Shown here piece by piece: positions 19,982 to 45,276 of a stretch of DNA of 64,000 nucleotides; positions within the stretch are counted from its first letter, which is position 1; the number at the start of each line of letters is the position of its first letter. The stretch comes from a virus. The DNA lies in the IMG/VR virus record IMGVR_UViG_3300027833_000015, positions 32,001-96,000 of that record, one strand, 5' to 3'. The translations under genes and the position numbers were made by a program. Below the pieces are notes generated by a model. It was not told where the DNA came from. It saw nothing but the letters and a program-made list of their open reading frames with translations, and did no database searches.

Positions 19982-20323
19982 TCAATCGAATTTACAGTCA
20001 CTCAACGCAGCGCGAACAATTTCAATCTTATCTATCAACCTGTCTATGTCCTCTTCCGCATGCTGAATTCGAACAGTCTGTTCAAAGTCTTTAGGCAGTT
20101 GTCCAAGATCTCCTCTTGGCCACAGAATACGAAACTCTGTATTCTGTTTTACCTGCCCTACAATACGAATAGAACCATCCTCAAGAAAATCTAATCTGCT
20201 AGTGATCAGGAAATACTGACCCAGAAACAAAGATATTAAGACGGCAATTCCAATTAGGTTCTTTAATGGTATCGTTAATTTTGTACCTTCGCTCAATGAG
20301 ACTGGTTCAATAGGATCATCCAT
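19982..20323 (-). CDS. Single-pass membrane protein with coiled coil
   Basis: Hydrophobic LIGIAVLISLFLGQYFLI segment followed by NTEFRILWPRG. Confidence 0.7.
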   Translation of the reverse strand: MDDPIEPVSLSEGTKLTIPLKNLIGIAVLISLFLGQYFLITSRLDFLEDGSIRIVGQVKQNTEFRILWPRGDLGQLPKDFEQTVRIQHAEEDIDRLIDKIEIVRAALSDCKFD

Positions 20324-22325
20324 TCAATAAATTACCAGCAAGGTCGTAGATGCCAATACCGTGGAACCCGTCTACCTTATCGGCATTCAGGTTTGTTACT
20401 ACGGTGCCAGAAGCAACGTCAGTCAGGTCGAAGATAGAGGCAGCAGCGATACGCGCATCTGCTCTGGCGTTTGTATAGTATAGTCTAGTGCCTTCACTCA
20501 GGTTTGTTGTAGACTTGGCGGTGAATCCTGCGTCGACTCTTGCGTCTGCTCGTGCTTGAGTATAGTATAGTCTAGTGCCTTCACTAATGTCTGTTGTTGT
20601 AATACTTGCATTGATGTATGCATCAACATCAGCATCGTCATAAGCAGCAGCAGAGGAGATTGTACCGTTTGCAGCAATACTGATATTGGTACCAGCAGTA
20701 AGTGAAGCGACAACGTTGGCAGTATCAGTGACATCTGCCAGTGCTTCTATGTCAACCAACTTGGTATTGAGAGCAGCGGTGAAATTCTTTTGAGTCAGTC
20801 CACCATCACCCACTGAATAGGTAGTGTCGGTCGAGGAGATTGTGCCGTTTGCAGCAATACTGATATTGGTACCAGCAGTAAGAGCAGCAACAACATTGGT
20901 AGTGTCAGTAACATCTGCCAGTGCTTCTATGCCGTCGAGTTTGGTTCCGTCTGCTGCAACGTCACGACCATCCACATTACCGCTTACGGTTATTGCTCCA
21001 GTAACATCCAGACCAGCACTTGAAATATTGACACGTTGGGTGCCACCAGTGCTGAAACCGATGACCTCATCACTTGGCCAGTATATGCCTGTGTTTGTGT
21101 CACCATCATTACACAGCGTGGGAGCGGTCACCGATCCATCAGATAATCTGATAGTTCCCTCTATCTGATTGACAGTGCTGCCTAGGAGTTTAATGCCCCA
21201 ATTTGTTGTGGTAGGTGTACCTGTAACGGAATACAGACCATGGTAGAGATATGCAGTAGTAATTTCACCAGCATTATGATCGATTAACGTCCTAGCACCA
21301 TATGCAGTGCCAATTTCACCTTCATTGTGAGTTATTCTACCATAGATACCATGTGCAGAACCGACACGCCCTGTGGTACCAGTGGTGCCGTTGCTGTGTA
21401 AACCATACACACCGTATGCATTAGTGATCTGATTGGTTGATGCAGCAGTACCGTTGTCCATCGCAGAGTAACCATACACACCGATCTGTACAGAATTCAG
21501 GGTTGCTCTATTTTGATCTGCTTGGCCATAAACACCATACACGGTTGTTGTATTAGTCGACACGTTGGCATTTGTGCCGCTTGTCTGCCCGAGGAAATAT
21601 CCTCCTATAACTACGTCATTGTCGCCAGAGGATGTAGAGGTGGCATAGATACCATATGCCCGACCTTCATTGCTGTTGTCACCACCAGTGTATGAGGTAT
21701 CAACATCGACCTGTATTCCGATGTGACTATGGTCAGCAGTAGCAGCATCATTTCCCGAGACGTTCAGGTCGAAAAATGCACCCTGGATCTGATTATTTCC
21801 AGTGGTGTAGTCAACCTTCGAATGTATTGACCTCGTGTTGGCAGCAGGGTCCAGGTCGAGTGTTTTGAAGACATCGATATCAGTGGCGGTTGCTGTGAGG
21901 GAAGAAGTGCCGCCTTGGGTTAGATTTAATGTGTTTGCTCCAAAACTCAGGTAGTTGTCAGCATCACCATTGTGAGAGAGTTTTGAGTTGATCTGTACAT
22001 CAGCAACATTGAATGTCATTGAACTCTGATTTAACTGGGCACGAATAGCACTAGCGACATAGAACTTCAGATTGGCGTCTGTTTTGTTACCCATTATCGC
22101 AGGTCTTGCGGTGCCTCCACCCCAAGCAATAATTTCATCTTCTGCGATGTTTATTTCGTTAGTAGTTGTTATGTCGCCTGTGAGTGACCCACCTGCCAAT
22201 GGGAGGTAGTCTCCAAGGGCAGTTGTGGTGGTTGTTAAATCTGTGTTTAGATTGGAAAAGTTATCGTCCAACTCAGCGAAAGTCAGTGCGCTTCCCTTAC
22301 CTGATCTTAATGTGAGTGTGGTCAT
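20316..22325 (-). CDS. Tail fibre protein, 669 aa
   Basis: N-terminal LRSGKGSALTFAELDDNFSNL anchor, central YGxYG beta-helix-like repeats, GDTNTGIYWP, VDGRDVAADGTKLDGIE and internal duplications. Confidence 0.85.
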   Translation of the reverse strand: MTTLTLRSGKGSALTFAELDDNFSNLNTDLTTTTTALGDYLPLAGGSLTGDITTTNEINIAEDEIIAWGGGTARPAIMGNKTDANLKFYVASAIRAQLNQSSMTFNVADVQINSKLSHNGDADNYLSFGANTLNLTQGGTSSLTATATDIDVFKTLDLDPAANTRSIHSKVDYTTGNNQIQGAFFDLNVSGNDAATADHSHIGIQVDVDTSYTGGDNSNEGRAYGIYATSTSSGDNDVVIGGYFLGQTSGTNANVSTNTTTVYGVYGQADQNRATLNSVQIGVYGYSAMDNGTAASTNQITNAYGVYGLHSNGTTGTTGRVGSAHGIYGRITHNEGEIGTAYGARTLIDHNAGEITTAYLYHGLYSVTGTPTTTNWGIKLLGSTVNQIEGTIRLSDGSVTAPTLCNDGDTNTGIYWPSDEVIGFSTGGTQRVNISSAGLDVTGAITVSGNVDGRDVAADGTKLDGIEALADVTDTTNVVAALTAGTNISIAANGTISSTDTTYSVGDGGLTQKNFTAALNTKLVDIEALADVTDTANVVASLTAGTNISIAANGTISSAAAYDDADVDAYINASITTTDISEGTRLYYTQARADARVDAGFTAKSTTNLSEGTRLYYTNARADARIAAASIFDLTDVASGTVVTNLNADKVDGFHGIGIYDLAGNLLNG
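20440..20940 (-). repeat. Internal duplications in the fibre gene
   Basis: IEALADVTDTxNVVAxLTAGTNISIAANGTISS twice and SEGTRLYYTxARADAR twice, also conserved at DNA level. Confidence 0.85.
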
Positions 22326-22963: not shown

Positions 22964-22971
22964 TATTTATA
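22964..22971 (-). promoter_or_regulatory. T4 late promoter TATAAATA
   Basis: Exact consensus. Confidence 0.7.
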
Positions 22972-22984
22972 CACCTTCGAGTTC

Positions 22985-23347
22985 TTAATCAAATTTACTT
23001 ACGCTGCGAGAAATAATGAGGTTCCCTTCAAGTATTCTCTCTACCATTGTCACGCCAGACCCAGGATCAACATACTCTACTTCCAGGTCATACACATAAC
23101 GTCGACGCTGCATAGCATCTGTCTGGGTGTTTGTCAACATGAACTCGATAACACCACCTGTTGATGGTGGTAGCAATGACGTGGTGAACGAGATCATCTC
23201 GCTCGAGTCAGCGTCATAACTTCTGTTGACATTACCACGGACAGTATAACCTGTGGTGTCTCTGGGAGATCCATCAGTGGATAGCATCTTGACTTGCCAC
23301 TTTATGTCTGACCCTTGGTCTAATTCTAAATCTTCGTACTGCGCCAT
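22985..23347 (-). CDS. Virion structural protein, BppU-N / Ig-like adaptor type
   Basis: LELDQGSD...LTNTQT...RYVYDLE...RILEG pattern; ACTAAATA late-box variant upstream (23374-23381). Confidence 0.7.
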   Translation of the reverse strand: MAQYEDLELDQGSDIKWQVKMLSTDGSPRDTTGYTVRGNVNRSYDADSSEMISFTTSLLPPSTGGVIEFMLTNTQTDAMQRRRYVYDLEVEYVDPGSGVTMVERILEGNLIISRSVSKFD

Positions 23348-23404: not shown

Positions 23405-25297
23405 TTATTCTTGTCCGTCGAAAGAAATACTACAACGTATTTGTCGAGTATCTTTTTGTTTCACGGTGATATTATATACTGCTTTCGCGGAGACGTTTAT
23501 CGCGCGAGTATCTTTTTCTTTCACCGTGGTATTATATATTCCTTTCGCGGAGACGTTTATCAAGCGAGTATCTTTTTGTCTGACATTAACGTATTTTGCT
23601 AATGGCACCTTTCCGTATTTTCTGAACAGTATAGTAGAAGCACTGATAACGGAAGGACTTGCCTTTGGAGTTGAATCAACTCCTGTCACCGTCCTCTTGG
23701 TTGTTCCCACGACAATAGCAGGCGATGGTTGAATGTGAATTCTTGGTTCTATTTCTCGTTCACCAGTGCATAGAACCACGCAGTTCGTGGTCTGTAGAGC
23801 ACCACTTGCTGTGATCACCCTTTCCGCAGAACCAGAAAGATTAGAAGGTTGAGATTCAAGTTGTGTATCGACCGTGTCTTTTATTGTTCTTTCTGCGATG
23901 CCATCTACTTTGACTTCGGTATCTTGACAGATCGCAGAAACTACGACTACAACTACACGCTCACCATCTCCCGCAACAGTTACAACACCGACCTCATCTG
24001 CTGTGAGAGCACCATCAAGAACATTGATGGTCCTTCCTCCAGCACCAACTACTGTGCTGGCAGTTGATTGTACTGCTTGGTCTATTTCGTTTGTTTCAAT
24101 TTCGCGTTCAGCGAGACCGACAACAGAGGATGCTGTAGTTTCGAGTGTGCCTTGTATCGATATAATTCTTTCTGATGAACCGACCACTTTGCTCTGGTCA
24201 TTGACCAGACTACCACTGGCATTGATTATTCTCTCAGCAACGCCACTCGCTACGCTGGCAGATGATTGTACTGCTTGGTCTAATTCGTTTGTTTCTATTT
24301 CTCTCTCAGCGACACCATCCACAAGTGAAGCAGTGGTATCACAGTAACCATAACCAAATACAGAACGCTTAGTAGTGGCAGCAACAACGGAGGGACTTGC
24401 CTTTGGAGTCGAATCAACTCCAGTCACTGTTCGTTTGGTTGTACCAGAGACGACATTCGATATTGTCGGGCGAATGACGACGGAAGGTCTTATTTCTCGT
24501 TCAGAGACGCCATCGACTTTGCTCTGGTCGACGACCACAGCACCACTGCCAGTGATTACTCGTTCAGAGACGCCAACGACTTCGATCTGGTCGTCGACGA
24601 CCAGAGTACCACTGCCTGTGACTGTTCTCTGTGCTGTTGCAGAGACGGTGGAGGTCTGTGCTTGAAGTGCCTGAGTAGTTTCATTTATCTCGACGATACG
24701 TTCGGCAACACCGCTGGCAACAGAAACTCCTGTGGTCAGGGCAACGGTGGATCGTATCTCTCGTTCACTGGTAGAAGAAACATTTGCATCAGCGGTAACT
24801 ATTACACCTGTACCAACAATCGTTCTCTCTGCTGTTGCAGAGGCAGTGGAGGTCTGTGCTTCTAGTGATATGGAGGTTCTTATTTGCCTCTCAGCGACAC
24901 CAGAGACGACATTCGATATTGTCGGTCGAATAACGACAGTCCCTGGTTTTCGACCAACATCTGCTATACCACTGACAACGGATGGGGTGGAGACTTCGAC
25001 TGCGGAAACTACGGTTACAACTACACGCTCACCATCTCCAGCGACAGTTACAACACCGACCTCATCTGATGAGAGGTCGCCATTGACTACATTGATTTGA
25101 CGTTTAGAGGTGCCGCTTACAGAAGCATCGCCAGTTACAAGGATGGCGTCTACAGAATTGCGTTGTAGTGTTGCTTGCCCAGAGACTTCGGAATCTTGGG
25201 AAACGAGTTCCACGACCAGAACATGAAGACTGGTTGCATAGTCGACCGCGACATAGTCGATATCGACGTATTCGAAAATTTGACCAGATGATGCCAA
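23405..25297 (-). CDS. Repetitive V/S/T/A-rich fibre-like protein, 630 aa
   Basis: About 20 imperfect SGxAERxI repeats, block duplications and a basic C-terminal 20-aa repeat x3; TTG start; CCTAAATA upstream. Confidence 0.75.
   Translation of the reverse strand: MASSGQIFEYVDIDYVAVDYATSLHVLVVELVSQDSEVSGQATLQRNSVDAILVTGDASVSGTSKRQINVVNGDLSSDEVGVVTVAGDGERVVVTVVSAVEVSTPSVVSGIADVGRKPGTVVIRPTISNVVSGVAERQIRTSISLEAQTSTASATAERTIVGTGVIVTADANVSSTSEREIRSTVALTTGVSVASGVAERIVEINETTQALQAQTSTVSATAQRTVTGSGTLVVDDQIEVVGVSERVITGSGAVVVDQSKVDGVSEREIRPSVVIRPTISNVVSGTTKRTVTGVDSTPKASPSVVAATTKRSVFGYGYCDTTASLVDGVAEREIETNELDQAVQSSASVASGVAERIINASGSLVNDQSKVVGSSERIISIQGTLETTASSVVGLAEREIETNEIDQAVQSTASTVVGAGGRTINVLDGALTADEVGVVTVAGDGERVVVVVVSAICQDTEVKVDGIAERTIKDTVDTQLESQPSNLSGSAERVITASGALQTTNCVVLCTGEREIEPRIHIQPSPAIVVGTTKRTVTGVDSTPKASPSVISASTILFRKYGKVPLAKYVNVRQKDTRLINVSAKGIYNTTVKEKDTRAINVSAKAVYNITVKQKDTRQIRCSISFDGQE
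23440..23590 (-). repeat. 60-bp tandem repeat, about 2.5 copies
   Basis: cgagtatctttt...ttcgcggagacgtttatc repeated with a 60-nt period. Confidence 0.85.
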
Positions 25298-25330: not shown

Positions 25331-25981
25331 TTAGGACTCAGAAATATCCTCGATCAACATCTCTGCCATTTGCTTGCCAGTTTCATCTGGATTAAACATG
25401 TATGCTATGGTTGCACGGAGGCAGTTGGTGCTTGCTGCGTGGTACATCAACTTGTCTTGCTCGTCATATGTACCATAATATCCAAACTTGCACTGCCAAC
25501 CTTTAACATCAGGCACGACAACATGTTCGTTGGTGATAGGGTCGATGTATTCAAATTGTCCGTCACCTTCAGATGACCATGTAAACAGCACATTATATCC
25601 AGGAGCGTTTGCATTGTTGTGCCAAGAAATAAACCCACCAGCAGGGTACACGGCACTCAGAGCATTGTTCCTTGTGCCTGCCCATGCTTGCAGGTCTTCT
25701 TTAATCGCTAGTGCTGGTTGGGTGACTTCATGCCAGTGGTCATGGTTTTTGCATGAGAAATTTGATGGAGAGATCTCACAACCAACCATCATTCCTGGAA
25801 ACCCAGAGTGTTGTTTGCCCTGACCCATTATATACTTCAGGTAATCTTCGTTACAAAACTCGTCACGTTTGGATGTGTCGCGATCCATTGCCACTTTATC
25901 GAATTCAATCATTTCGAATATGGGAATGAACCTATTGAGTATCTCAAGCAGTTCTGGATTTAATATGGGCACAGTCTTCAT
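25331..25981 (-). CDS. Putative 2OG-Fe(II) oxygenase / cupin
   Basis: YPAGGFISWHNN (HxN in place of HxD), distal YHAA His and CLR Arg. Confidence 0.65.
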   Translation of the reverse strand: MKTVPILNPELLEILNRFIPIFEMIEFDKVAMDRDTSKRDEFCNEDYLKYIMGQGKQHSGFPGMMVGCEISPSNFSCKNHDHWHEVTQPALAIKEDLQAWAGTRNNALSAVYPAGGFISWHNNANAPGYNVLFTWSSEGDGQFEYIDPITNEHVVVPDVKGWQCKFGYYGTYDEQDKLMYHAASTNCLRATIAYMFNPDETGKQMAEMLIEDISES

Positions 25982-26727
25982 AGTATAACATCACTCAGGT
26001 TTTTTGATGCTGCTGACGACATATGCACAAGTACTGTGTCATCGGGTTTGGGGAATTTTATGGGGTCAAGAATACTCCACCAATTCCACTTCTCATTATT
26101 GGCAAACTCTCCAACGATCAGACTGGCATACTTCGGTTCTTTATTGACCAACCACCACAGAGTGAATTGATCCCATATCGCTAGGCATCTCGGATACAAC
26201 TCGTAATCATACTCGCCTTTGTCGTTTAGTGGCCACCAATTACCTGACTGCTGCTCAACATATATGTCGTACCAATCCTGCATGAACTGATCAACGAGTT
26301 CGCTTTTTCTATATAGACAAACAGCGCCACACAATTCAAACTTACCTCCAGGGAAGTCGACATCTGCAAATATATGGTAGTGTTCGGGTTGAAGAGTCGT
26401 GTACACCATGTCGGAATCACCCAAATCGTCAAACACCTTTGAGATATCCTCATGGATAATTTCCATGTCGGCATCGATATAGAAGGTTATGTCCCATGGA
26501 CTATTTGCCATGCCCCAGAGTTTTGCGCGATAGTGATCGTCACAGAATAATATCTTATCTGCTTGGTCTGCTCGGTGGTCGAGGTATTTTTCTTCTACTA
26601 CAAGGCAGACATTTGCTTCTGGGTAGAAGTCTTTGATTCCATCAAGGAGGTTGCACGCCCAATCATAGTATATGGTTTCTCTCGAAGCAACTATGAGGTA
26701 TCCTTTAGTCTTTTTGCTCGGCATCAT
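25978..26727 (-). CDS. Putative GT-A glycosyltransferase
   Basis: KGYLIVAS beta-1, RAKLWGM, SPWDITFYIDAD (DxD), CGAVCLY, WDQFTLW and terminal VLVH resemble GT8/GT77-type nucleotide-sugar transferases. Confidence 0.75.
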   Translation of the reverse strand: MMPSKKTKGYLIVASRETIYYDWACNLLDGIKDFYPEANVCLVVEEKYLDHRADQADKILFCDDHYRAKLWGMANSPWDITFYIDADMEIIHEDISKVFDDLGDSDMVYTTLQPEHYHIFADVDFPGGKFELCGAVCLYRKSELVDQFMQDWYDIYVEQQSGNWWPLNDKGEYDYELYPRCLAIWDQFTLWWLVNKEPKYASLIVGEFANNEKWNWWSILDPIKFPKPDDTVLVHMSSAASKNLSDVIL

Positions 26728-27187
26728 AAGTCACAAATCCAATTCCATTTTCTTCCATAACGATTAGTTGCGCATACATGTTCAATTCTACAATGTTCTT
26801 TGAACGACGCAACTTGCTTTTGAGTGTCTTGTTCTTTGTATTAGATATCATGTCGATAGCAAGCATCTTGATCTTGGAGTCGAATAATCGCTCAAGTTCC
26901 TTTGCCTGTGCTTCTGCCTTATCGCGTGCACCTTTCTGCTCGCGCTCTCGTTCCTTTCGGTCACCCCTTTCCTTGGTGTTCTCGTCTATTTTATCTACAC
27001 CAATCACATCAAGTAGTTCGGTGAAGTCTGGATTCTCTTCGCCCTTTTCAGTAATTTTACGGACGGTGAGAACCTGGGATATTTTTCGACCATCTGCATC
27101 TTCGATTACAAGAATCGCTTCTGCGCAATCTTTTTCTTTAGTATTCCAGAATGCGTTATCTAACCAGTTTCGTGATTGTACTGCCAT
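26705..27187 (-). CDS. Hypothetical protein, possible fibre assembly chaperone
   Basis: 160 aa, charged and helical; SD GGAGG; directly follows the repeat proteins and overlaps the glycosyltransferase gene. Confidence 0.6.
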   Translation of the reverse strand: MAVQSRNWLDNAFWNTKEKDCAEAILVIEDADGRKISQVLTVRKITEKGEENPDFTELLDVIGVDKIDENTKERGDRKEREREQKGARDKAEAQAKELERLFDSKIKMLAIDMISNTKNKTLKSKLRRSKNIVELNMYAQLIVMEENGIGFVTYDAEQKD

Positions 27188-27245
27188 GATATACCTCCAT
27201 GATATATTTCAGTTTGTAATTTATATATACGCCAACGAAAGACGG

Positions 27246-28892
27246 TTAATCGTCATACCGTACATACAGGGTGTATGTTTCTATAAGGGAAGATGTACTC
27301 TGAACGAGTTGGCCACCGTACTGCACCTGTCCCGTGAAATTCTGATTGATGAATCCTCTTGTACCGAGGAACGGGCGTGTGCCTTGGAAGTTTCTAGTGC
27401 CTTGGAAGTTTCTAGTGCCTTGGAAGTTTCGACTGCCTTGGAAGTTTCGAGTGCCTTGGAAAGATCGCGAACCTTGAAAACTCCGCGATCCAAGAAAGTT
27501 GGTGTTTCTAGCACCAATATAATATCGGGGTCCACTAAAGAAAGCAATGCGAGCACCCGCATATTGGATGTTTCGAGATCCAGCATAATATCCTACGAAC
27601 TGTCTCGTTCCAGCAAACTTTTCTTGACTGGCAAATTGTTGGAAAAATTGCTGTCCACCCTTACCGCTGTTTCGAACTCCCGCATACTGTACTTGACTTG
27701 CGAACTGTTGTGATGCGCTCACGTATGTTCCACCAAAGTCGCTGTTTACCGTCCCCCCGTATTGTCCGCTAAAAGCATTGAGGAACTGGTTGTAGTAATC
27801 CCCTAATATTCCACCATCCACCCACCTGTTGCCAGCGAAGTAATACTGTGGTTGCCCCACGAAATTCACGTTACCAACTGTCCACGAAGTTTGTACTCCA
27901 TTCGTCCATGATAACAATGCACTCGTATAGTCTGCTTGTGCACTTGCAAAGTCTGTTTGTGCGCTTGTAAAGTCTGCTTGTGCACTTGTATAGTCTGCTT
28001 GTCCACTTACGAAATACTCTTGTGGTGACTGGCGTGTTCCTGCATAATCTACATCGCCAACGTATTGTACTACATTAGTATCTCGACGTCTGTCTGTTGC
28101 TGTTCCTCTTGCTGTCCAAGACCCAGAATACCCAGCAGCGGTGGGAGTGCCTTGAGAAGATGAAAGTAATAGGTAGTCGCCTATGCCAGTGCTGGCGCGT
28201 AATTTCATTGTCAGATATGCATAATACTCTGCCATCTGTGCCTCTGTCAAACCCTTTACTGCGGGTTTTGAGGAAACCACATCGTACACTACGTTATTAC
28301 CAAGAGACCCTGCCCATGGAGCAGAGGTAGTTGGAGTGGAAAGATTGGTCTTTCTGTAGATGTCATACCCCACACTGCTTCCGTAGTCGTCTACGAAAAT
28401 GTTCTCGTCCCAAAGTTCATGTGTAGCAGCATCTGGGTTAGATGATGCGAGGACAAAAGTTCCAGGGTACTGATCGTCAATTGCCGTGCTGTATGACGCT
28501 TTGACTTCTAAACTCAACATGGCATCAGTCATTTTATATATCTGACCATCGCTGTCCGCAGAAAGAATCGGTGCAAACGAAGGCGATGTATATGCATCAT
28601 CTAACTGATGGAATGGGTAGGCAGTCTCAGTGTATTGTATTTCCGAGTTAGTTCCATGAGAACCAGTTGCAACATCATACTGCGTATCGGTCGCTGTACC
28701 TATGAGCGTGGATGTAGTTGCGTTGAAACATACAGATCCGTTGTAGCGATCAGTCGATGCTGCGTATGTATCTACGAGATACTCGCCTGCCTTTTCCCAT
28801 GCATATGCCAATGATGCGGCATTCACTTGCTCCAAATTTCCATCAGTATCTTTGATGGTCAAAGGATACTTTGTCATATGTTCTGATGACAT
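27246..28892 (-). CDS. [FY]xGxR-repeat protein B, 548 aa; probable virion fibre component
   Basis: Globular N-domain, about 260 aa of G/Q/R/aromatic repeats, C-terminal ETYTLY; paralog of 28897..30954. Confidence 0.8.
   Translation of the reverse strand: MSSEHMTKYPLTIKDTDGNLEQVNAASLAYAWEKAGEYLVDTYAASTDRYNGSVCFNATTSTLIGTATDTQYDVATGSHGTNSEIQYTETAYPFHQLDDAYTSPSFAPILSADSDGQIYKMTDAMLSLEVKASYSTAIDDQYPGTFVLASSNPDAATHELWDENIFVDDYGSSVGYDIYRKTNLSTPTTSAPWAGSLGNNVVYDVVSSKPAVKGLTEAQMAEYYAYLTMKLRASTGIGDYLLLSSSQGTPTAAGYSGSWTARGTATDRRRDTNVVQYVGDVDYAGTRQSPQEYFVSGQADYTSAQADFTSAQTDFASAQADYTSALLSWTNGVQTSWTVGNVNFVGQPQYYFAGNRWVDGGILGDYYNQFLNAFSGQYGGTVNSDFGGTYVSASQQFASQVQYAGVRNSGKGGQQFFQQFASQEKFAGTRQFVGYYAGSRNIQYAGARIAFFSGPRYYIGARNTNFLGSRSFQGSRSFQGTRNFQGSRNFQGTRNFQGTRNFQGTRPFLGTRGFINQNFTGQVQYGGQLVQSTSSLIETYTLYVRYDD
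27379..27486 (-). repeat. 18-bp tandem repeat (RNFQGT, about 6 copies)
   Basis: gtgccttggaagtttcta and variants in tandem. Confidence 0.9.
27925..28005 (-). repeat. 21-bp tandem repeat (QADYTSA-like, about 4 copies)
   Basis: agtctgcttgtgcacttg... repeated with a 21-nt period. Confidence 0.85.
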
Positions 28893-28896
28893 GGTG

Positions 28897-30954
28897 TCAG
28901 GACTCAGAAACTTTACAATACAGGGTGTATGTCTCTAGGACTGTTGCTACTGCGGTCAAAGTGTCTCCCGCATACTGCTGGGAATTCTGACCAACGTATT
29001 CTCGAGTATACTGGCCAGCATATGTACCAGAGTACTGCGCTGAGTAGTTTGTAGGTACTGTACTCGGTCTCTGGATCGTAGAGTTTCTCGTATAAGTACC
29101 AGAGAATGTTCGCTGTCCAGTGAACGCTCCCGCATTATTTCGATACCCTGCGTATTGTTCGATGAATGTCCTCGAACCTCCAAACTGTCCGTTAGATCCA
29201 CCTTGTGCTGTTGTACGAGTACCAGCGTAGTTTGCTGCTCCCACATATCTCTCACTGATTAGACGCGACCCTGCATATTGATTGCCGTATGCTCTTTGTC
29301 CACCAAAGGATTGGTACGCAGTGTAATATCTGTTGCCACCGAACCAACGCTGGCCAGCATACTGAACCTGTCTTTGACCAGAAAATTGTCGGGTTCCAGA
29401 AAACGCTGCAAGGCGAACACCACTGAACTGTCGGGTTCCAGTGAACTGAGCGAATTTGGTGTAGTATCTGGGGACACCACCTCCCCAACCACTGCCCTTA
29501 CCGCCACCGCCAAAAGTGGTCGATGAGCGCGATCCAGCAAACTGTGTTTGACCACCGAAACTGCCATTGACAATACGGAGGAACTGGTTGAAGTAATTTC
29601 CGAGTCCAGGAAGGTTTACCCACCTGTTGCCAGCGAAGTTGGTGTTACCTTGTTGTGTTCCAACAAAGTAGTAGTATCCAGTAAAATAGTTGAAGCGTGC
29701 ATTGTTGCGAGTGCCAGCGAAGTATCCCAGATATTGACGCGAACCAGCGAATTGTTGGTATTGAATATTGACGAATGCGCGTGACCCAGAAAAGTTTCTT
29801 GTGCCAACATACTGGGTAGTGTATGTCCTCGAACCTAAATACTGGCCACTGTATGTGCGAGTAGAAACGAACTGAGTCGGTGCACCGTTCTGGTAGTTTG
29901 TTCGACTGCCTGAGAATGATAATAGTCGCTGGCCAGCATACTGCACTGGGACGTCAGCAGATGAAAACCCTGTATATTGACCAGTGTATTGTCCCGTGAA
30001 TTGTTCATTACTATATGATAGAAAAAACACAGAAGAATATTGGATAGATTCCAACACGTTTATTGTGTCTGATATAGTACCACGAGGTTGCCATGTGCCC
30101 GTTTCTCCTGTACTCGCAGGAGTTTGTGTAGAGGGTAATAGAACCATCTTACCGAGGTCGCTGAATACCCGAGCATGTCGGCATGCTTGTGCCATAGACA
30201 ACTCAAGGTTTGCTGATACGTTCTCTTTGATGTCATGTGTTTGATATGATGCATCGTCATCCGAAGGGAGAACAAGCAGGTTCATTTTCGCGGCATTGTA
30301 TGCAGACTGTTCAGCGGTTGTGCCGTCAGTCTTTCTATAGATGTTATATGGAGTTGATGTTGAAGCAGTCGTATCAGAGAAGGCAGAATTATTCCACACT
30401 TCCCATGATCCACCCTGCATAGCAGAGGGATTGGTGGTGCCTATACGAAACGAACCCACACTCTCTGTTGACAATGAATACTGCAACAGTCTCTTACCAA
30501 ACATTATAGTATAATCAGAGTCCATTTCACGGATGTCACCGTCAGAATCGACAGCAACTAATCTGCTGGCGAGCGATCCCGATTGTGTCGGGTAATCGAT
30601 ATGACTCAAACTATCACGGGCAGAACTATCATAACACTGGAATAGTGGAGTGGTGGTAGTTGAACTGCTCAGAGAAGTTCCTGGGTGTGTGCCAACTGCC
30701 TGATTGTAGAATGTGTCCGTGTACGAACCAATCTGAATCATGTCCGAATCCGCTACACGTGTCGCATAACGATCAATGGAACCATGATAGTTTCTGGCGT
30801 CATCATCAACCGTGCCAAGGTTACTGGCAGGATGATTATCTACAATATATTTCTCTGCGAAGATTGAGAGAGATTCTTCTTCTGCTGCTGTCAATGAGCG
30901 CAGGTCTGCGCCCGTACCCTTCAGCGTCAGAGGTATTGATTTCGAATGTGCCAT
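28897..30954 (-). CDS. [FY]xGxR-repeat protein A, 685 aa; probable virion fibre component
   Basis: N-domain homologous to protein B (PLTLK, IGSYTDTFY, GTWQPRGTISD), about 360 aa repeat region, C-terminal ETYTLY. Confidence 0.8.
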   Translation of the reverse strand: MAHSKSIPLTLKGTGADLRSLTAAEEESLSIFAEKYIVDNHPASNLGTVDDDARNYHGSIDRYATRVADSDMIQIGSYTDTFYNQAVGTHPGTSLSSSTTTTPLFQCYDSSARDSLSHIDYPTQSGSLASRLVAVDSDGDIREMDSDYTIMFGKRLLQYSLSTESVGSFRIGTTNPSAMQGGSWEVWNNSAFSDTTASTSTPYNIYRKTDGTTAEQSAYNAAKMNLLVLPSDDDASYQTHDIKENVSANLELSMAQACRHARVFSDLGKMVLLPSTQTPASTGETGTWQPRGTISDTINVLESIQYSSVFFLSYSNEQFTGQYTGQYTGFSSADVPVQYAGQRLLSFSGSRTNYQNGAPTQFVSTRTYSGQYLGSRTYTTQYVGTRNFSGSRAFVNIQYQQFAGSRQYLGYFAGTRNNARFNYFTGYYYFVGTQQGNTNFAGNRWVNLPGLGNYFNQFLRIVNGSFGGQTQFAGSRSSTTFGGGGKGSGWGGGVPRYYTKFAQFTGTRQFSGVRLAAFSGTRQFSGQRQVQYAGQRWFGGNRYYTAYQSFGGQRAYGNQYAGSRLISERYVGAANYAGTRTTAQGGSNGQFGGSRTFIEQYAGYRNNAGAFTGQRTFSGTYTRNSTIQRPSTVPTNYSAQYSGTYAGQYTREYVGQNSQQYAGDTLTAVATVLETYTLYCKVSES

Positions 30955-30968
30955 GTACTAACCTCTGA

Positions 30969-31628
30969 TTATGGATTCAACAGAGTGCCAGCAGCGTTGT
31001 AGACATTGGGGATACGAGCATTCACCTCGTCTATTGCGCCATGCACTGTGTTGGCAGATATCTCACTACTACTTATACTACCTGTACCAGTGGTTGGCAG
31101 GGTGATTGAACCATAGAACTGCGAGTTGGCGTTGGTGAATCTGAGGGCATTCGTATTACTTGCGCCTGATTTAATTCTCAATTGCCCTGACGCTTGGGAG
31201 AGTTGTGCAAAGTTGACCCCACCATCTCTTAGTACAATGTCACCGCCATTAGCATCAAGGACGATATCATTTGGAGTGATAATAGAGAACGTGCTGGTTG
31301 CAGTAATATTGTTATCGCTGGCATCAAACACTGCTTCTATTTCGTTTATTGCAGCAACCAAGTTCGACTTGTCAGTGGTGTCCAGAGTAGAGATAACTCC
31401 AATCTCTATATCATGTTCGTTGATTGCATCTATAAGACTCTTGGCGGTTGTGGTGATTCCTGTGAGAGAGAATACAGAACTTCCTGGAAGTGGACCAAAT
31501 GCTGAGTCGAGATATGCCAAGTCAGAATCGAGTTGGGTGCGACCAAGGTTAAGTTTGTCGACCAACTGTTGGAATGTGTCTGTGGTCTGATATATCGGTT
31601 GGTCTTTTGGTTGCCATTCAATGGTCAT
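30969..31628 (-). CDS. Short fibre / connector protein, 219 aa
   Basis: TDTFQQLVDKLN N-terminus, SLIDAINE and NLVAAINE coiled repeats, DIVLDANGGDIVLRDGG, C-terminal VYNAAGTLLN. Confidence 0.75.
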   Translation of the reverse strand: MTIEWQPKDQPIYQTTDTFQQLVDKLNLGRTQLDSDLAYLDSAFGPLPGSSVFSLTGITTTAKSLIDAINEHDIEIGVISTLDTTDKSNLVAAINEIEAVFDASDNNITATSTFSIITPNDIVLDANGGDIVLRDGGVNFAQLSQASGQLRIKSGASNTNALRFTNANSQFYGSITLPTTGTGSISSSEISANTVHGAIDEVNARIPNVYNAAGTLLNP

Positions 31629-31629
31629 C

Positions 31630-31860
31630 TTATTTTCCTTCTACCAGAGTTTGTATTAGTGCTTTGAGTTCTGCCATCTCATCCTTCAGGGAAGAGATCT
31701 CGGTCTTCATATTATCTTTTGTTTCTCGTTCTTGTATTGAAAACTCCTTGCGCTTTCGTGCAAGGAGTATATCATCTTCGTTAGTATTTATAACGGTTCC
31801 TGTCTCTATATTCTTATACCAACCAGACATACCCTTTACTTTGACAAGGTTCGCTTCCAT
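31630..31860 (-). CDS. Small coiled-coil protein following the VrlC-like gene
   Basis: MEANLVKVKGMSGWYKNIETGTVIN...; TAATG coupling gives the start at 31860. Confidence 0.75.
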   Translation of the reverse strand: MEANLVKVKGMSGWYKNIETGTVINTNEDDILLARKRKEFSIQERETKDNMKTEISSLKDEMAELKALIQTLVEGK

Positions 31861-37566: not shown

Positions 37567-39063
37567 TTAGAGGTCAATTACTACCTTGATATCTTCTATT
37601 TGATCAGCGTCACGAGAAACTGCTATTCTGTTATCTATGTATATAACTTCTCCGCTGTATACATCAACCTCTGATGGACGAAGAACTGGTTGAAGGTTGA
37701 TACCGATTGGTGTTGCTGTACCGCCACCACCGCTGATCTGACATACTGAATAACTATCAAAGGCAGAGTAACCAGTTTCTCTTGTTTGGTGTACGAACAT
37801 TATTCCGCGAGCAGCATCGTAGAAGTCTATGATTGCTACAGAACCTGCTTGTGTGATCGTTTGATCGCCTGTGATGTTTTCAGGTACTAGACTTGCTGTG
37901 TTTACATACAACCTCTTGAAAGCAGACAGAGTTGGTGCCGTACACTCAGGGACTTCAACAAATGAAGCAAACTGAGCAGAGTCTTTCACTGGGTTGCGGA
38001 CGATTCCGATTTGTCGGAAGTCATTAGTTGTTTGGAAGTCGTCGTTCTCGTTTCCATTCAACTGCGAATTAAACATCATGGCAGAAGAATGAAGATCAAG
38101 TGTACTGTTGCCGCCCATGCCCGAGTCACCAGAAATAAGAGCGCGAAGTATTGCACCAGATCCAGAACCACCAGAGACCTTAATGGAAGCATCAGCATAG
38201 TCTCGACCGAATACGAAATCGGCATCGTCAGAGTTATTCTTCATGAAGATGTCGGTTATCCCGCCATTAAAAATCTTCGCAGAAGCAGTTGCAGGAGTGG
38301 GGACTTGGCCAAATCCCTGTCGTGCGCGACCAGTTATAGTGATGGTCGGAGCACTGGTATAACCAGTTCCAGGGTTTTCAATATGAATGCCAATGAGTTG
38401 TCCAGGGATTGCTCCTGCCTGTATACCACGTTGTTGTAGTCTAGACACAGAAAGATCCTCATCCGCTGGACCACCTGCTGCTTCATCGACAACTCGCTCG
38501 ACTGGCATGTAGGTTGATGTCAGGAACTTTCGTGCTTCAGCGGCACCGATGTTGTATAGGAACTTCCAGTAGTATCCGTCTTGTCCAGCACTGAATACTT
38601 CTGTGCTATTATTGGTTGGTTTAAATAAAGATGCGCGAGGAGTTCCACCAACAGTCCTGCCTTGTTTAATGCAAACATACACGTTGTTATCGTCTGTTAG
38701 TACATAATATGGGTTTGGGGCAAATGCGCCACTGGCAGTTGTGCCACTTTTAATTTCGGTATTTGAACCATACTCTGATGACCATCCTTCATAGAAGTTG
38801 CCAGCAATCCAAGAGAAACGAGGAACAACGTATGAGACGTCAGGCACCTGTTTCATTGATTGGATAGATGAGCGGAACACCAAACTCTCCTCAGTTCCAG
38901 AGTATGGAGTAGGTGGGAGGGATTCTTCATTCCATTCCTCAGAACGCCCAATAGCAATGTAGTGTCTGTCAGAATCCCCAAGAGCGACGCCAACGTTCTG
39001 TGTGCGGTCGAATATACTTACCAGCATTTCGCGTTTGAGTACATCTGTAATTGTTGCTGCCAT
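37567..39063 (-). CDS. gp8: Baseplate wedge gp8
   Basis: YIAIGRSEEW, VSYVVPR, YYVLTDDNNVYVCI, DGYYWKFLY, NDFRQIGIVRNP, SGEVIYIDNR...QIEDIKVVI. Confidence 0.9.
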   Translation of the reverse strand: MAATITDVLKREMLVSIFDRTQNVGVALGDSDRHYIAIGRSEEWNEESLPPTPYSGTEESLVFRSSIQSMKQVPDVSYVVPRFSWIAGNFYEGWSSEYGSNTEIKSGTTASGAFAPNPYYVLTDDNNVYVCIKQGRTVGGTPRASLFKPTNNSTEVFSAGQDGYYWKFLYNIGAAEARKFLTSTYMPVERVVDEAAGGPADEDLSVSRLQQRGIQAGAIPGQLIGIHIENPGTGYTSAPTITITGRARQGFGQVPTPATASAKIFNGGITDIFMKNNSDDADFVFGRDYADASIKVSGGSGSGAILRALISGDSGMGGNSTLDLHSSAMMFNSQLNGNENDDFQTTNDFRQIGIVRNPVKDSAQFASFVEVPECTAPTLSAFKRLYVNTASLVPENITGDQTITQAGSVAIIDFYDAARGIMFVHQTRETGYSAFDSYSVCQISGGGGTATPIGINLQPVLRPSEVDVYSGEVIYIDNRIAVSRDADQIEDIKVVIDL

Positions 39064-39115
39064 ACTTTGTCCCTTTACAACTTGCCTTGTTGTTTACAAT
39101 TGTTTAATATAGATC

Positions 39116-39123
39116 TATTTATA
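39116..39123 (-). promoter_or_regulatory. T4 late promoter TATAAATA
   Basis: Exact consensus upstream of gp8. Confidence 0.8.
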
Positions 39124-39145
39124 CTCTTCTCGGGAGCGTATAAAA

Positions 39146-42100
39146 TTATTGTTCAACCCAATCAGTACCGTCGAATAGATAAACATCACCATCCGTTTCG
39201 AGTCGGACAGGATGACCAGCAGCATATGTGCCTGTGCGCCAAGATTCTGTTCCACCTGTGCCGTCATCATAGTACCATTTCTCATTAAGATCACGAAGAC
39301 CAGTATTGACATCTATGTCCCATAATGTCTCTTCTGTCTTAATTCCCGCAGCGTCACCATTGAATATTTCTTCACTCACCATGAGGTTGTCCCTGTAGTA
39401 TTCTTGCTTGATACGGAAACCGCTGGTGTTATAATATATCTTGCGCGTGATCGGTGCGTTCAAGGTCGGTGTGTCCACTGCCTTGACAAAATTACGCTGG
39501 GTCACCAAACCATTCGCATAAATATCTTGCTGAGTCATTGCGAATAAAGCGTAGATGTTTGGCACTTCGCCTAAGTGAACCGTCGAAGATACCCCTGTTG
39601 CTGTTGCTGGATCCAATACAATTGCCTCGGTATTTCCGTCTGGGGAACTCCATATTTTGTAAGTCCAATCAAAATTGGCAGGTTTTGCTGACAGTACATC
39701 AATAGAATTACTTGTCGTTGTTACAATCAATTGGTTGCTGATTCTTCCTTTCAATCCACTGTGCTCTACCGCACGTGCGGTGTATGTACCAGCGTCTCCT
39801 ACAGAAACAGTAGTTCCGCTTATCGAAAGGGCACTACCGATTGGAACATTGTCTTTGAAGATCTCGTATCCTTTTGTTTCGTAGTGGTTTTCTCCAGGAA
39901 TAAGTTCAATCGAACCACCTTCTATCCGCAGATATGGGGAGTCTGGTAATCTAACAACCGAGACAAACAGGTCAGTTTGTCTTTGGTGTATAAGGTCGCC
40001 AGAATCAGGTTCAGCACCTGTGCCATCTGGGAATTTAGTAGCACTCATCCAATTTGGTGGGGTTCCAGTTCCCCTCAAGGCAGGTGGTATGAGACGAGAC
40101 TCTAGGTCGGTGATGATCTTATCTTTATCAATGCCACGTGCCTGTGTGCCCAATTCTCCTCGTGTAATTCCAGTGAAGGTAGTTGATGTTATGCCCGTAT
40201 ATCCTATGACTTCGCCATTGGGTGATGCTATATAACCACTTGTCGGGAACCCAGCAGTACTGCTAACATTTAATGGCGAAGTGCTTGTGGTGCTTGCCAC
40301 ATGAGTTGTGAGTCTAGTAGACTGGCCATTTTCAATATCAAAGTTGCTTACGAAAGCAACCTTGGTTCCATCTGGACTACCCTTTCCGTCGTAGTCCCAT
40401 GGTTCCGACTGGTCGCCTTGAGTGTTTCCATTAGCATCGAGTATAGGATATATGAGGCGTGTACGAGAAGCGGGAACGAATTTTGTGGCACCTGTTCTGA
40501 GGTCAAGAATTTTACCGTCACTAAAAATCCACCGACCGCTCTTGCCGCATGCGCCTGGATCTGACACACGAGAGTTTGCAAGTCGTTCCATGTTACTTGG
40601 CCACGGTTCGTCCCACTTACGACCAACCAATTGCTGGTTGCCGATCAGATGCCACATACCATCGCCAGACCAGCACTGGTGGCCATCGCCCAAGAAAGTT
40701 GTCGCCTTGCGGATGTTACCGCCATCAAGGTCAGACCAACTACGACTTTGCCCGAATGGTGCAGTAGTCTCGTTCTCTCCTGCTGTTTTATTTCTCATCA
40801 TAACAACAGGGCGGTTGACGTCGGGGTTGGGTAGTGGTCGCTTGCCAGATCCATCGCCCAACTGAGTCGGGATATTAACAGTTCCGTCATTTTCAAGTCG
40901 GACTGATTTATATTCTCCCGACAGTATCGGGTTGTGGACATTGATATCGTCCCAATCGCGGTAACGCTGAACACCATAGAGGTGTGAATCGTTTGCGCTA
41001 GTTTCACCCAAATTCTCTATACCATAACCGATAGTTTCTATAGTATCGGTCGCGACAGTGTATCGTTTAACTGCTGCACCTGAGTTGGATGATGTGTCAT
41101 ACTTCGCGCCACCTGTGTCGGTGTATTCGACGAAGAATAATGTGTTGTCGGTCTTGCCCCAGCGAGGTTCGGTACCAAAAGCAACAAATTGGTCGGAGTC
41201 ATTGGCCAAGTCTAGTAATCGTACTTGTCTTTGCCTGTCCAATGAACCGCTGGTCCATCTATCAACAAGCAGGTACTGGCCATCGTGACTCCAAGACTGA
41301 GTATTGTGATAGTTGTGGTAGTCTCTCATGGTTGGGTTGTTGGTCATCCTCCACATGGGTGATGCAATAGCGGTGTCGGGGTCAATGAATTCAGACCTGC
41401 TCAGCAACCCAGAAACAGTCAGGGTAGCAGTGACATCAATGGTGGGATCTGTTGACACTACGGTGCCACGTATGAGTAAGGAATGACCTCCCCCACTTCC
41501 GTCTCCCCCTGCAAATCGGTCATTGTACCCGTATATCGGAACATTTTCAATTGGGTGTACATAGTCGTAGTGCCAAACATCTTCGTCCATCAGGTTGATG
41601 ATGTTAGACATATCAATGTATGTCTCATCCATTGTACGAGCGTTGATGTCATCTGCGTTTGCCATATTCTCGTACTGGGTATGCCAGTTCGCCACTGTTT
41701 GTGGTTTGAATTGATCGTTAATACGAGACAGTACCTTATATCCATTTGGACCTGGACCAATCTCTGCATAGGAAGTTGAATGTAAACCCAGATTGTTCTG
41801 AGCAAGCATTACTCTTGCTGTTCCTTCTAATACGATAGGTGGCGGTGGTTGTATAATGGCATCTGGCATTGCTCCCAATCCACTACTGATCTGCCATATT
41901 GCACGCTGCGCGAGCGGAATGTCACGAATCATCAAGTAGGTAGACGACAATGCCACTTGGCCAGAGAGGTACATACCTGCTGGGTGGACGAATGTCTTAT
42001 ATGCTTCTTGCCATAAGTTGACAGACAATGGTGTTGAAACCAACAAACCATACAGTTGGTAGAATTTGTTATCAGTTATGCGCTTGTCCGTTACATCAGC

Positions 42101-42826
42101 ACCAATAGATGTAAAGGTAGATAAGTTTGTCTGTATGCGTATTGTTACTCCATCTGGAAGAACACCCGTTTGTGTGTTAACCACACCGAGAGCGGGATCG
42201 TCGTGTACGAGGAGGACAACCTTGTTGTTCGCGTAGTCAATTCTGAAGTGAACGCCTTCTAACAACTGGGCGGTCTTCGTCAGCGAGTCAGAGGGGTCAA
42301 CGTATGGGGTGGTGACTTCAACAGTACCATTCGGGAAAGTCAAATCGAAGTCTGAATCGGAAATAGAACCAGAACCAGTATACTCTACAGTTTCTGCTGT
42401 GGGTTCTCCCACGATAAACATTTCATCACGACCATAACCTACTTCGATGTCCACACCAAAGAAGATACGGAAGAATTGTTTGATCGAAAACTCAGTACCC
42501 TTCGACCGATACAACAGACTGGAGTACTGAAGAGCAGATCGTTTGTCGTTGAAAGACTCGAAGTATGGTTTGCCTAACAACAGTTCGTTGGATATGTATG
42601 AGAGAAATTCTTCTCTTGTTTGTACTATGTCCCGAGCGACCATCAGGTCTTTGATATCAGAGACAGGGTTTGATGAGTCTTCTAGACTCTTATAATATGC
42701 CTTGAGGAAAGCAACGAGTTTTGGATATCGTTCCAGATAGTGTTCAGGGAGAACAGTCTCGACTTCGTAGCGATCGAATTTAAGATCGCGACGATAGATA
42801 TCTGTTAGCGTTTTATCAAGGGACAT
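39146..42826 (-). CDS. gp7: Baseplate wedge gp7-like protein with a C-terminal beta-propeller extension
   Basis: N-terminal YPKLVAFLKAYY, LYRSKGTEFSIKQFFRIFFG, YKTFVHPAGMY; then a GGDGSGGG linker and WSHDG / WSGDG / SPDG propeller repeats. Confidence 0.75.
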   Translation of the reverse strand: MSLDKTLTDIYRRDLKFDRYEVETVLPEHYLERYPKLVAFLKAYYKSLEDSSNPVSDIKDLMVARDIVQTREEFLSYISNELLLGKPYFESFNDKRSALQYSSLLYRSKGTEFSIKQFFRIFFGVDIEVGYGRDEMFIVGEPTAETVEYTGSGSISDSDFDLTFPNGTVEVTTPYVDPSDSLTKTAQLLEGVHFRIDYANNKVVLLVHDDPALGVVNTQTGVLPDGVTIRIQTNLSTFTSIGADVTDKRITDNKFYQLYGLLVSTPLSVNLWQEAYKTFVHPAGMYLSGQVALSSTYLMIRDIPLAQRAIWQISSGLGAMPDAIIQPPPPIVLEGTARVMLAQNNLGLHSTSYAEIGPGPNGYKVLSRINDQFKPQTVANWHTQYENMANADDINARTMDETYIDMSNIINLMDEDVWHYDYVHPIENVPIYGYNDRFAGGDGSGGGHSLLIRGTVVSTDPTIDVTATLTVSGLLSRSEFIDPDTAIASPMWRMTNNPTMRDYHNYHNTQSWSHDGQYLLVDRWTSGSLDRQRQVRLLDLANDSDQFVAFGTEPRWGKTDNTLFFVEYTDTGGAKYDTSSNSGAAVKRYTVATDTIETIGYGIENLGETSANDSHLYGVQRYRDWDDINVHNPILSGEYKSVRLENDGTVNIPTQLGDGSGKRPLPNPDVNRPVVMMRNKTAGENETTAPFGQSRSWSDLDGGNIRKATTFLGDGHQCWSGDGMWHLIGNQQLVGRKWDEPWPSNMERLANSRVSDPGACGKSGRWIFSDGKILDLRTGATKFVPASRTRLIYPILDANGNTQGDQSEPWDYDGKGSPDGTKVAFVSNFDIENGQSTRLTTHVASTTSTSPLNVSSTAGFPTSGYIASPNGEVIGYTGITSTTFTGITRGELGTQARGIDKDKIITDLESRLIPPALRGTGTPPNWMSATKFPDGTGAEPDSGDLIHQRQTDLFVSVVRLPDSPYLRIEGGSIELIPGENHYETKGYEIFKDNVPIGSALSISGTTVSVGDAGTYTARAVEHSGLKGRISNQLIVTTTSNSIDVLSAKPANFDWTYKIWSSPDGNTEAIVLDPATATGVSSTVHLGEVPNIYALFAMTQQDIYANGLVTQRNFVKAVDTPTLNAPITRKIYYNTSGFRIKQEYYRDNLMVSEEIFNGDAAGIKTEETLWDIDVNTGLRDLNEKWYYDDGTGGTESWRTGTYAAGHPVRLETDGDVYLFDGTDWVEQ

Positions 42827-42831
42827 ATATT

Positions 42832-44736: not shown

Positions 44737-45230
44737 TATCGAAACCTATTTAGATTAATGGTCGTTGTGAATCCATTATTATTTATTGTCAGTTCAACTA
44801 TGATGCGGACAGTATTGAGTACACGTTCGCCAAAGTTTGAGATACCCTGCTCTATAAGTTGATCACCAACGTAGTATTGTACCTTTTCTACATGCGCCCT
44901 TGGTTCCCAGCGTTTGATTTCTGTTTCTATTCTGGTTGTCAGTACAGATTCTGAGAAGTTAAGGTGCATATCAAAGAGCATTGCAGATATGTTTGCACCA
45001 AACGTTGGTTCGAATGGTTTTTCAAGGGTGTTTGTCATTAGGATATTTTGCACTGCTTGTTCAACAGCGCGGATATCTAACTTTTTATATATGTCTCCAG
45101 TGTATACACCATTCTCATCTGGACTACCCGTCTTGGGGGTGAACGAAAGGTCGATGTCAGAATAAAATTTCTTCTTCGTTGTAACCTTTGTCGACGGTGT
45201 CAGTCCAGGTGATATTCTTTGTAGTGCCAT
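44736..45230 (-). CDS. gp25: Baseplate wedge gp25
   Basis: YSDIDLSF, AVEQAVQNILMTN...EKPFEPTFG, WEPR. Confidence 0.9.
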   Translation of the reverse strand: MALQRISPGLTPSTKVTTKKKFYSDIDLSFTPKTGSPDENGVYTGDIYKKLDIRAVEQAVQNILMTNTLEKPFEPTFGANISAMLFDMHLNFSESVLTTRIETEIKRWEPRAHVEKVQYYVGDQLIEQGISNFGERVLNTVRIIVELTINNNGFTTTINLNRFR

Positions 45231-45257
45231 GGTGCGCTCCAGTTGATCTACTGGATC

Positions 45258-45265
45258 TATTTATA
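45258..45265 (-). promoter_or_regulatory. T4 late promoter TATAAATA for gp25-6-7
   Basis: Exact consensus. Confidence 0.8.
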
Positions 45266-45276
45266 CGCCTTCCAAC

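Follow-up and report, generated by a model that had tools for sequence, protein, structure and literature searches.

A glycosyltransferase and an oxygenase-like protein linked to repeat fibre genes in aquatic T4-like phages: a candidate fibre-tailoring module

The DNA considered here, called the window throughout, is a stretch of 64,000 nucleotides (nt), positions 32,001 to 96,000 of the IMG/VR record IMGVR_UViG_3300027833_000015, which comprises 153,883 bases at an estimated completeness of 85%. It belongs to an uncultured T4-like myovirus and covers its structural module, in which all genes lie on the minus strand. Behind the baseplate genes, two genes for repeat fibre proteins are followed by a cassette of three small genes encoding a conserved protein of 160 amino acids (aa), a 249-aa protein with the fold of glycogenin-like glycosyltransferases and a 216-aa protein with the fold of 2-oxoglutarate (2OG) oxygenases. 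Linkage between the enzyme genes and the fibre genes is strict and obligatory across diverse phages. Because of this obligatory adjacency, the late promoter in front of the genes, the restriction of the family to phages and the protein-modifying nature of the nearest known structures, we regard a dedicated, late-expressed fibre-tailoring module of aquatic T4-like phages as the best explanation of the locus and, on balance, a probable one. The evidence points strongly to chemical tailoring of the repeat fibres by the phage, although it is no proof.

Linkage of the cassette to a family of repeat fibres

A scan of IMG/VR with a profile of the oxygenase-like protein uncovered at least 561 relatives, from which 80 loci with identities down to 36% were kept. 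Gene order is nearly uniform among them: a relative of the 1897-aa protein that closes the baseplate block of the window, a 219-aa-like protein, one or two repeat proteins, the 160-aa protein, the transferase, the oxygenase-like protein and a homologue of T5 p132, with an optional gene for a 630-aa-like or an approximately 250-aa protein in front of the latter. In 62 of the 65 loci with enough upstream DNA, the open reading frame (ORF) directly before the cassette ends in the C-terminal tail motif of the fibre family described below, 57 times as an exact match and five times with a W/K variant. The reverse search of IMG/VR used a degenerate DNA pattern for the fibre tail alone. Both enzymes lay downstream of the tail in 65 instances; in the other 55 the locus ended too early, a second fibre paralogue intervened, or the order was fibre and then oxygenase. 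No clean case of a fibre without the cassette or of a cassette without the fibre was found among the IMG/VR loci tested in both directions. In some loci (L010, L011, L014-16 and L019), the transferase and oxygenase-like genes are separated by a fibre gene. An earlier note on this DNA, made from the letters alone, had proposed that the enzymes and the repeat proteins belong together, and their adjacency in both directions bears this out.

Among 185,579 prokaryote genomes, the family occurs on just three contigs of metagenome-assembled genomes (MAGs). Two of these are T4-like phage contigs with the canonical module and the third is a fragment of 911 bases. A lone oxygenase-like gene (L201), considered as a counter-example, turned out to be a second paralogue, with the full module 20 kb away on the same contig. 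This solitary HxN paralogue (7989-8639, plus strand) lies between a tail-tube-like gene and uvsY on the Porticoccaceae MAG contig JAYQEC010000001.1, whose canonical module (L203) is that of a T4-like phage. The genome of the window has a single copy of each enzyme, and the record contains no glycosyltransferase family 2 (GT2) or sugar-epimerase genes elsewhere at E <= 0.001. Against GenBank phages, the region had no megablast match, and tblastn returned phage C48C1 (OQ984149, Kyanoviridae) as the only relative. Here too, a tail-bearing repeat protein of 3347 aa is followed by genes for 153-, 242- and 235-aa proteins and a p132-like gene, all annotated as hypothetical. Phage C48C1 differs in having one giant fibre gene with GNY/YSR/YTR repeats of period 4, whereas the window encodes two shorter paralogues of period 6.

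The tyrosine- and glycine-rich repeat fibres are a new family. Its members begin with a conserved N-domain of roughly 280 aa, continue with a low-complexity region that can be as short as 60 or as long as approximately 3000 aa, and end in a near-invariant C-terminal tail with the consensus ...E-T-Y-T-L-Y-V-R-x-A. The N-domain is always N-terminal, forms 649 cluster representatives at 50% identity and has the invariant residues G65, G77, G144, D168, G238, P250 (numbered as in repeat protein B), G257, W259 and G263. When the 150 best representatives were picked by the N-domain alone, 120 carried the tail, and most of the remainder were truncated. Repeat proteins A and B of the window are paralogues (E 2e-26 over their N-domains, residues 3-306 and 5-277) and share a periodicity of six residues, [FY]-x-G-[ST]-R-x; 18-nt tandem repeats in the repeat B gene encode GTRNFQ units. 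More distant members follow a four-residue period, [Y/F]-[T/A/S/V]-[G/R]-[N/D/T], with an autocorrelation of up to 0.86 at lag 4. Over 54,078 residues, the repeat regions are composed of T 13.7, G 11.7, Y 11.7, R 10.0, S 9.0, N 8.5 and F 6.7%, and they are nearly devoid of Pro (1.4%), Lys (0.3%) and Cys (0.0%). Neither the two repeat proteins nor the N-domain gave a useful match in Pfam, PHROGs or PDB sequences, and the N-domain found no match in the ESM Atlas.

The fibre genes and the cassette appear to be expressed together. Upstream, the block at 37567-47721 contains gp5-, gp25/53-, gp6-, gp7- and gp8-like baseplate genes followed by the 1897-aa protein of phrog_358, as judged by PHROG matches; downstream of the cassette region come further fibre-like genes and then neck, terminase, sheath, portal and capsid genes. 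Six ORFs sit between the baseplate block and the neck/capsid block. The genes for the 219-aa protein, repeat A, repeat B and the 160-aa protein are separated by 14, 4 and 58 nt, in this order. Overlaps of 23 nt and 4 nt follow, the first between the 160-aa and 249-aa genes and the second between the 249-aa and 216-aa genes. The run extends past the 216-aa gene to a 630-aa repeat protein gene and a 120-aa T5 p132-like gene. A T4-type late promoter box, TATAAATA, precedes the 219-aa gene (Table 1), and the next box is found at 22964-22971, just past the p132-like gene. Since these boxes bracket them, the eight genes look like one late transcription unit. Exact matches to TATAAATA number nine in the window compared with 1.36 expected, all on the minus strand and all intergenic, with starts at 9632, 14216, 19479, 22964, 31785, 39116, 45258, 55457 and 60016. 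As an observation in its own right, the nine boxes provide a map of late transcription units across the whole structural module.

Table 1. Features of the fibre and cassette region, in the order of transcription
Feature	Position	Strand	Basis or remark
T4-type late promoter TATAAATA	31785..31792	-	Upstream of the 219-aa gene; start of the unit
219-aa fibre-like protein	30969..31628	-	Weak PHROG tail-fibre matches; homologues at the same position
Repeat fibre protein A, 685 aa	28897..30954	-	N-domain, [FY]xG..R repeats, C-terminal ...ETYTLYCKVSES tail
Repeat fibre protein B, 548 aa	27246..28892	-	Paralogue of A; tail ...ETYTLYVRYDD
160-aa conserved protein, charged helical middle	26705..27187	-	First cassette gene; alignment A3
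GT8/glycogenin-like GT-A glycosyltransferase, 249 aa	25978..26727	-	AlphaFold 2 (AF2) fold, structural matches, motifs
PHD/P4H-like 2OG-oxygenase-fold protein, HxN...H...RxT, 216 aa	25331..25981	-	AF2 fold, structural matches, motifs
630-aa Ser/Val/Thr/Glu-rich repeat protein	23405..25297	-	Approximately 25-aa VSGVAERxI-type units; second fibre-like gene
120-aa T5 p132 homologue	22985..23347	-	Last gene of the unit; PHROG and PDB profile matches

Predicted folds and active sites of the two enzymes

The AlphaFold model of the 249-aa protein (alignment A1) is a confident one, with a predicted local distance difference test (pLDDT) score of 92.0 and a predicted template modelling (pTM) score of 0.89. 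In Foldseek searches the model was most similar to glycogenin (E 1e-8), and LgtC was also among the fold matches. Alignment with glycogenin 3t7n gave a VIA Z of 17.1 at a root mean square deviation (rmsd) of 3.9 over 196 residues with 14% identity, followed by GlyE (Z 15.2), the Skp1 alpha-galactosyltransferase 6mw5 (15.0), UGGT (14.8) and A64R of PBCV-1 (14.4). All structures nearest to the model in the VIA comparison are protein glycosyltransferases. Across 219 unique sequences, R67, K69, D85-x-D87, D186-Q187, H235 and S237 are essentially invariant, and both aspartates of the DxD motif (Y-I-D-A-D) are kept in 218 of them. A DxD motif combined with a DQ pair and a late His is what we take to be the pattern of glycosyltransferase family 8 (GT8), as in glycogenin and LgtC; by comparison of motifs, H235 and D186-Q187 would be equivalent to the metal-ligand and catalytic residues of those enzymes. 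At the sequence level, the protein was unmatched in Pfam (including Glyco_transf_8), in PHROGs and in PDB sequence profiles. Only weak Pfam matches were obtained with 43 members of its family, to Glycos_transf_2 in 13 of them (best E 0.012) and to Nucleotid_trans in two. At the level of the predicted fold, the assignment as a GT8/glycogenin-like GT-A transferase holds, in agreement with the GT-A call of the earlier note.

The 216-aa protein is predicted to form a double-stranded beta-helix (AlphaFold model from alignment A2, pLDDT 95.5). Its best VIA match was PHD2 (Z 10.9, rmsd 3.5, 145 residues aligned), and further matches were PiuC (10.0), the Pseudomonas P4H (9.8), 6t8m of the Skp1 pathway (9.5) and vCPH of PBCV-1 (9.2). 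A search independent of Foldseek, covering 48,161 chains, had 2OG oxygenases in all of its top 43 rows, the best of them reaching Z 9.6. In about 208 unique sequences with a mean identity of approximately 49% across the columns of alignment A2, the residues H58, Y112, H121, N123, N125, K165, H181, R189 and T/S191 are invariant. The metal motif reads H121-N-N123...H181, in which position 123 holds Asn in each of the 208 informative sequences, with no instance of Asp or Glu. R189-x-T/S191 is likewise invariant and lies eight residues past H181, at the start of the next strand in the model, where R189 is a candidate for the basic residue that would bind the C5 carboxylate of 2OG. The location of N123 in the model, at a strand end and the following loop, fits the usual place of the triad residue, so that the layout would resemble HxD...H...RxS. 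Since HxN replaces HxD, the chemistry of the protein is uncertain. An Asp-to-Asn change in human collagen prolyl hydroxylase is reported to leave partial activity, and AspH and halogenases are known without the triad carboxylate. The strictly conserved HxN site would also probe the limits of the 2-His-1-carboxylate rule.

No relevant Pfam match at E up to 1 was obtained with 45 members of the 216-aa family, and the protein was unmatched in PHROGs and PDB sequence profiles. Hundreds of metagenomic homologues exist for each of the two enzyme families, all of them unannotated. The IDAD and WHNN...YH...R motifs pointed out before are present and invariant in more than 200 homologues, and the gene order, close packing and overlap of the last three genes agree with the minus-strand ORF coordinates. 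The proposal that the 216-aa protein is a 2OG oxygenase holds for the fold, which is PHD/P4H-like; the HxD triad and membership of a Pfam 2OG-oxygenase family were looked for and not found. The literature search returned nothing specific on an HxN 2OG oxygenase.

The genome itself encodes another oxygenase-like protein outside the window, a 195-aa protein with a canonical-looking H-H-D motif (L206 1471-2058, minus strand; G000:C1 ~106986-107573), whose gene is located directly upstream of one for a 326-aa protein resembling the small subunit of ribonucleotide reductase. It scored 24.7 bits against 2OG-FeII_Oxy_3, under the 27-bit cut-off of that family. In an hhalign comparison, this 2OG-FeII_Oxy_3-like protein showed no sequence kinship with the 216-aa family (probability 0.6%). 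A natural GT2-oxygenase fusion was also rejected. P0171, an ENA metagenome protein of 288 aa, starts with a GT2 domain of bacterial type and ends with the last 115 residues of the oxygenase-like protein (70% identity), but it comes from one contig only and is probably a chimeric assembly.

Fibre tailoring and competing explanations

In the tailoring model, one or two large fibre-like proteins would be made together with three dedicated small proteins, namely a helical 160-aa factor, a retaining GT8-like glycosyltransferase of the Mn/UDP-sugar type and a protein with the 2OG-oxygenase fold. Most likely, both enzymes would act in the cytoplasm on new fibre proteins before assembly. The transferase might O-glycosylate Thr, Ser or Tyr, for which the abundant residues of the repeats are candidates, or a hydroxyl made by an enzyme. 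The oxygenase-like protein might oxidise a side chain, with candidate sites in an Asn or Asp before an aromatic residue of the repeats, in Arg, or in the invariant Pro of the N-domain (P250). Such modifications could alter the solubility, stability or receptor binding of the fibre. The folds, the invariant motifs, the gene linkage, the late promoter and the restriction to phages are observations, whereas substrate, chemistry, order of the steps and the role of the 160-aa protein in this model are our inference.

Several points weigh against this interpretation. A canonical 2-His-1-carboxylate triad (HxD/E...H) was not found in the 216-aa family, and with an HxN site the protein may catalyse a different chemistry or none. 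The residues classically targeted in collagen and Skp1 are missing from the repeats. Moreover, gene adjacency is no proof of an enzyme-substrate relation, and GT8 genes in the tail-fibre regions of pelagimyophages have been read as host O-chain modifiers (PMC7029224).

Applied to the present locus, exactly that proposal would have the enzymes remodel the host surface late in infection, with lipopolysaccharide (LPS), the O-chain or a surface protein as their target, in order to block superinfection or re-adsorption of progeny to lysed cells, and the fibre neighbourhood would reflect a hypervariable island for host recognition. GT8 is indeed most familiar as a family of LPS-synthesising enzymes, and the fold matches include LgtC. 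However, remodelling of the host does not predict that the cassette and a single fibre family are tied to each other, whichever of the two is taken as the starting point, over sequences as divergent as about 35% identity; the cassette does not behave like a floating island gene. The top structural matches are protein glycosyltransferases and not LPS enzymes, the genome record yielded no further LPS or nucleotide-sugar genes, and the unit has a late promoter. We consider host-surface remodelling improbable on these grounds. Modification of phage DNA by base hydroxylation and subsequent glycosylation is very improbable in view of fold and gene context. Although glucosylation of phage DNA is common, the oxygenase fold is nearest to protein prolyl hydroxylases and not to TET/JBP (NgTET1 reached Z 8.3, rank 15, in the Foldseek-independent search), and the genes belong to a late structural unit that is far from DNA-metabolism genes and strictly linked to a fibre family.

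One or both of the putative enzymes might instead help the fibre to fold or assemble, or be minor components of the virion, binding the fibre, for instance at its conserved C-terminal tail, but leaving it covalently unmodified; the HxN protein would then be a pseudo-enzyme. In support of this, Asn replaces the triad carboxylate in all 208 sequences, nothing at the sequence level connects the HxN protein to any 2OG-oxygenase family, and the cassette is accompanied by a gene of assembly or anchor type, the T5 p132 homologue. On the other hand, both His residues, the RxT motif that would bind 2OG and several second-shell residues are invariant at the column identity given above, and the transferase retains every putative GT8 catalytic motif; such conservation is typical of active sites. 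A purely non-catalytic role therefore seems unlikely to us. Fibre tailoring remains our preferred reading. The earlier suggestion that the enzymes decorate virion fibres rather than DNA draws support from the enzyme folds, the two-way linkage and the late unit shared with the fibre genes, whereas the accompanying idea of collagen- or Skp1-type hydroxylation of the repeats is unlikely because they are almost without Pro and Lys.

Comparison with known systems places the module between several precedents. The Skp1 pathway of Dictyostelium and Toxoplasma (PhyA and GT-A transferases) also combines a PHD-type 2OG oxygenase with a GT8-like retaining transferase acting on a protein, and structures from this pathway, 6t8m and 6mw5, are among the best fold matches of the phage enzymes. 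In contrast to it, the phage module has HxN instead of HxD, one transferase instead of several and, as presumed substrate, a repeat fibre nearly without Pro; there is no relationship at the sequence level. Glycogenin, a GT8 enzyme that glucosylates its own tyrosine, is the best structural match of the transferase; the D-A-D metal motif is common to both, the DQ pair and the C-terminal His of the phage protein would correspond to those of glycogenin, and the presumed phage substrate contains 12% Tyr. Unlike in glycogenin, nothing suggests self-glucosylation or a Tyr acceptor in the 249-aa protein, which is also set apart by its low identity and the missing Glyco_transf_8 match. The streptococcal system for serine-rich-repeat adhesins (GtfA/B and GlyE on PsrP) resembles the module in placing a dedicated enzyme of GT8 fold beside a long, low-complexity adhesin rich in hydroxy amino acids; it differs in being bacterial, in its accessory Sec export pathway and in lacking an oxygenase partner.

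Viral precedents are vCPH and A64R of PBCV-1, enzymes that modify virion proteins and are both among the fold matches. Freeman et al. 2023 are said to describe glycosylated capsid and tail proteins of mycobacteriophages, with transferase genes beside the structural genes. These systems belong to other hosts and virus groups, and their targets are collagen-like proteins or capsid and tail-tube proteins; they offer neither a pairing of a GT8-like enzyme with an HxN oxygenase nor a link to a [Y/F]-x-[G/R]-x repeat fibre. To our knowledge, enzymatic tailoring of virion proteins has been described for giant algal viruses and mycobacteriophages but not for T4-like phages, and no such enzyme is tied to a fibre family of this kind. 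No description of a module of fibre, transferase and oxygenase-like protein was found in the literature search, and none of the four module families is represented in Pfam or PHROGs. We read the module as virus-encoded modification of virion proteins, which is known in kind and has new features here. It is common, as seen from the number of IMG/VR contigs with the oxygenase-like gene and of N-domain representatives. If the fibres are modified, host recognition by abundant aquatic myoviruses would depend on a chemistry that is missed by sequence-based predictions of receptor binding.

In a bolder version of the tailoring model, the HxN protein would have a metal site of a new type and be catalytically active as an oxygenase. 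Jointly with the transferase, it would modify the non-Pro, non-Lys tetrapeptide repeats directly. At tens to hundreds of positions in each molecule, the Asn or Asp of G-[N/D]-[Y/F] might be hydroxylated, for instance, or Tyr, Thr or Arg might be glycosylated. We think this version doubtful. If true, it would turn a low-complexity chain rich in Tyr and Arg into a glycan-coated or sticky adhesive fibre and would represent a virion appendage and a type of protein modification not yet described in phages.

Other genes of the unit and neighbouring observations

The 160-aa gene was found in 73 of 81 loci, always immediately before the transferase gene. Its product had no match in PDB, Pfam or PHROGs, and the ESM Atlas yielded weak sub-threshold leads to tail-assembly-chaperone families (0.77-0.79). 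A role as adaptor or chaperone is a guess. Homologues of the 219-aa protein, ranging from 184 to 990 aa, occupy the equivalent position in 36 loci. Its label as a short fibre is a weak one, suggested by PHROG tail-fibre matches that span residues 59-112, such as phrog_25848 (tail fibre; E 7e-6, residues 59-109).

Past the cassette, the 630-aa protein is a possible second substrate of the transferase. Its gene ends in a 60-nt tandem repeat (23445-23577), and homologues of 612-1795 aa are present in only 15 of the 81 loci, between the oxygenase-like and the p132-like genes. The 120-aa protein matches phrog_1084 (E 3e-20) and phrog_3304 (E 2e-9), its annotation in PHROGs being 'L-shaped tail fibre assembly', and profile A4 of its family matches chain R of PDB 7qg9, T5 p132 (E 1e-5, residues 27-118). 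T5 p132 is a structural collar protein and the attachment site of the T5 side fibres. As the p132-like gene is present in 80 of 81 related loci, the 120-aa protein may anchor the repeat fibres instead of acting as a chaperone.

Two further ORFs deserve mention. Opposite the 160-aa and repeat B genes, an antisense ORF (26778-27713, plus strand) would encode a Ser/Leu-rich protein of 311 aa; most likely it is no gene and arises from the repeats of the opposite, coding strand. Beyond the transcription unit, the N-terminus of a 669-aa protein (20316-22325, minus strand) is of the classic tail-fibre type, LTFAELDDNFSNL, and its C-terminal part contains duplicated GIEALADVTDT...NISIAANGTISS units; this protein is probably the conventional receptor-binding fibre.

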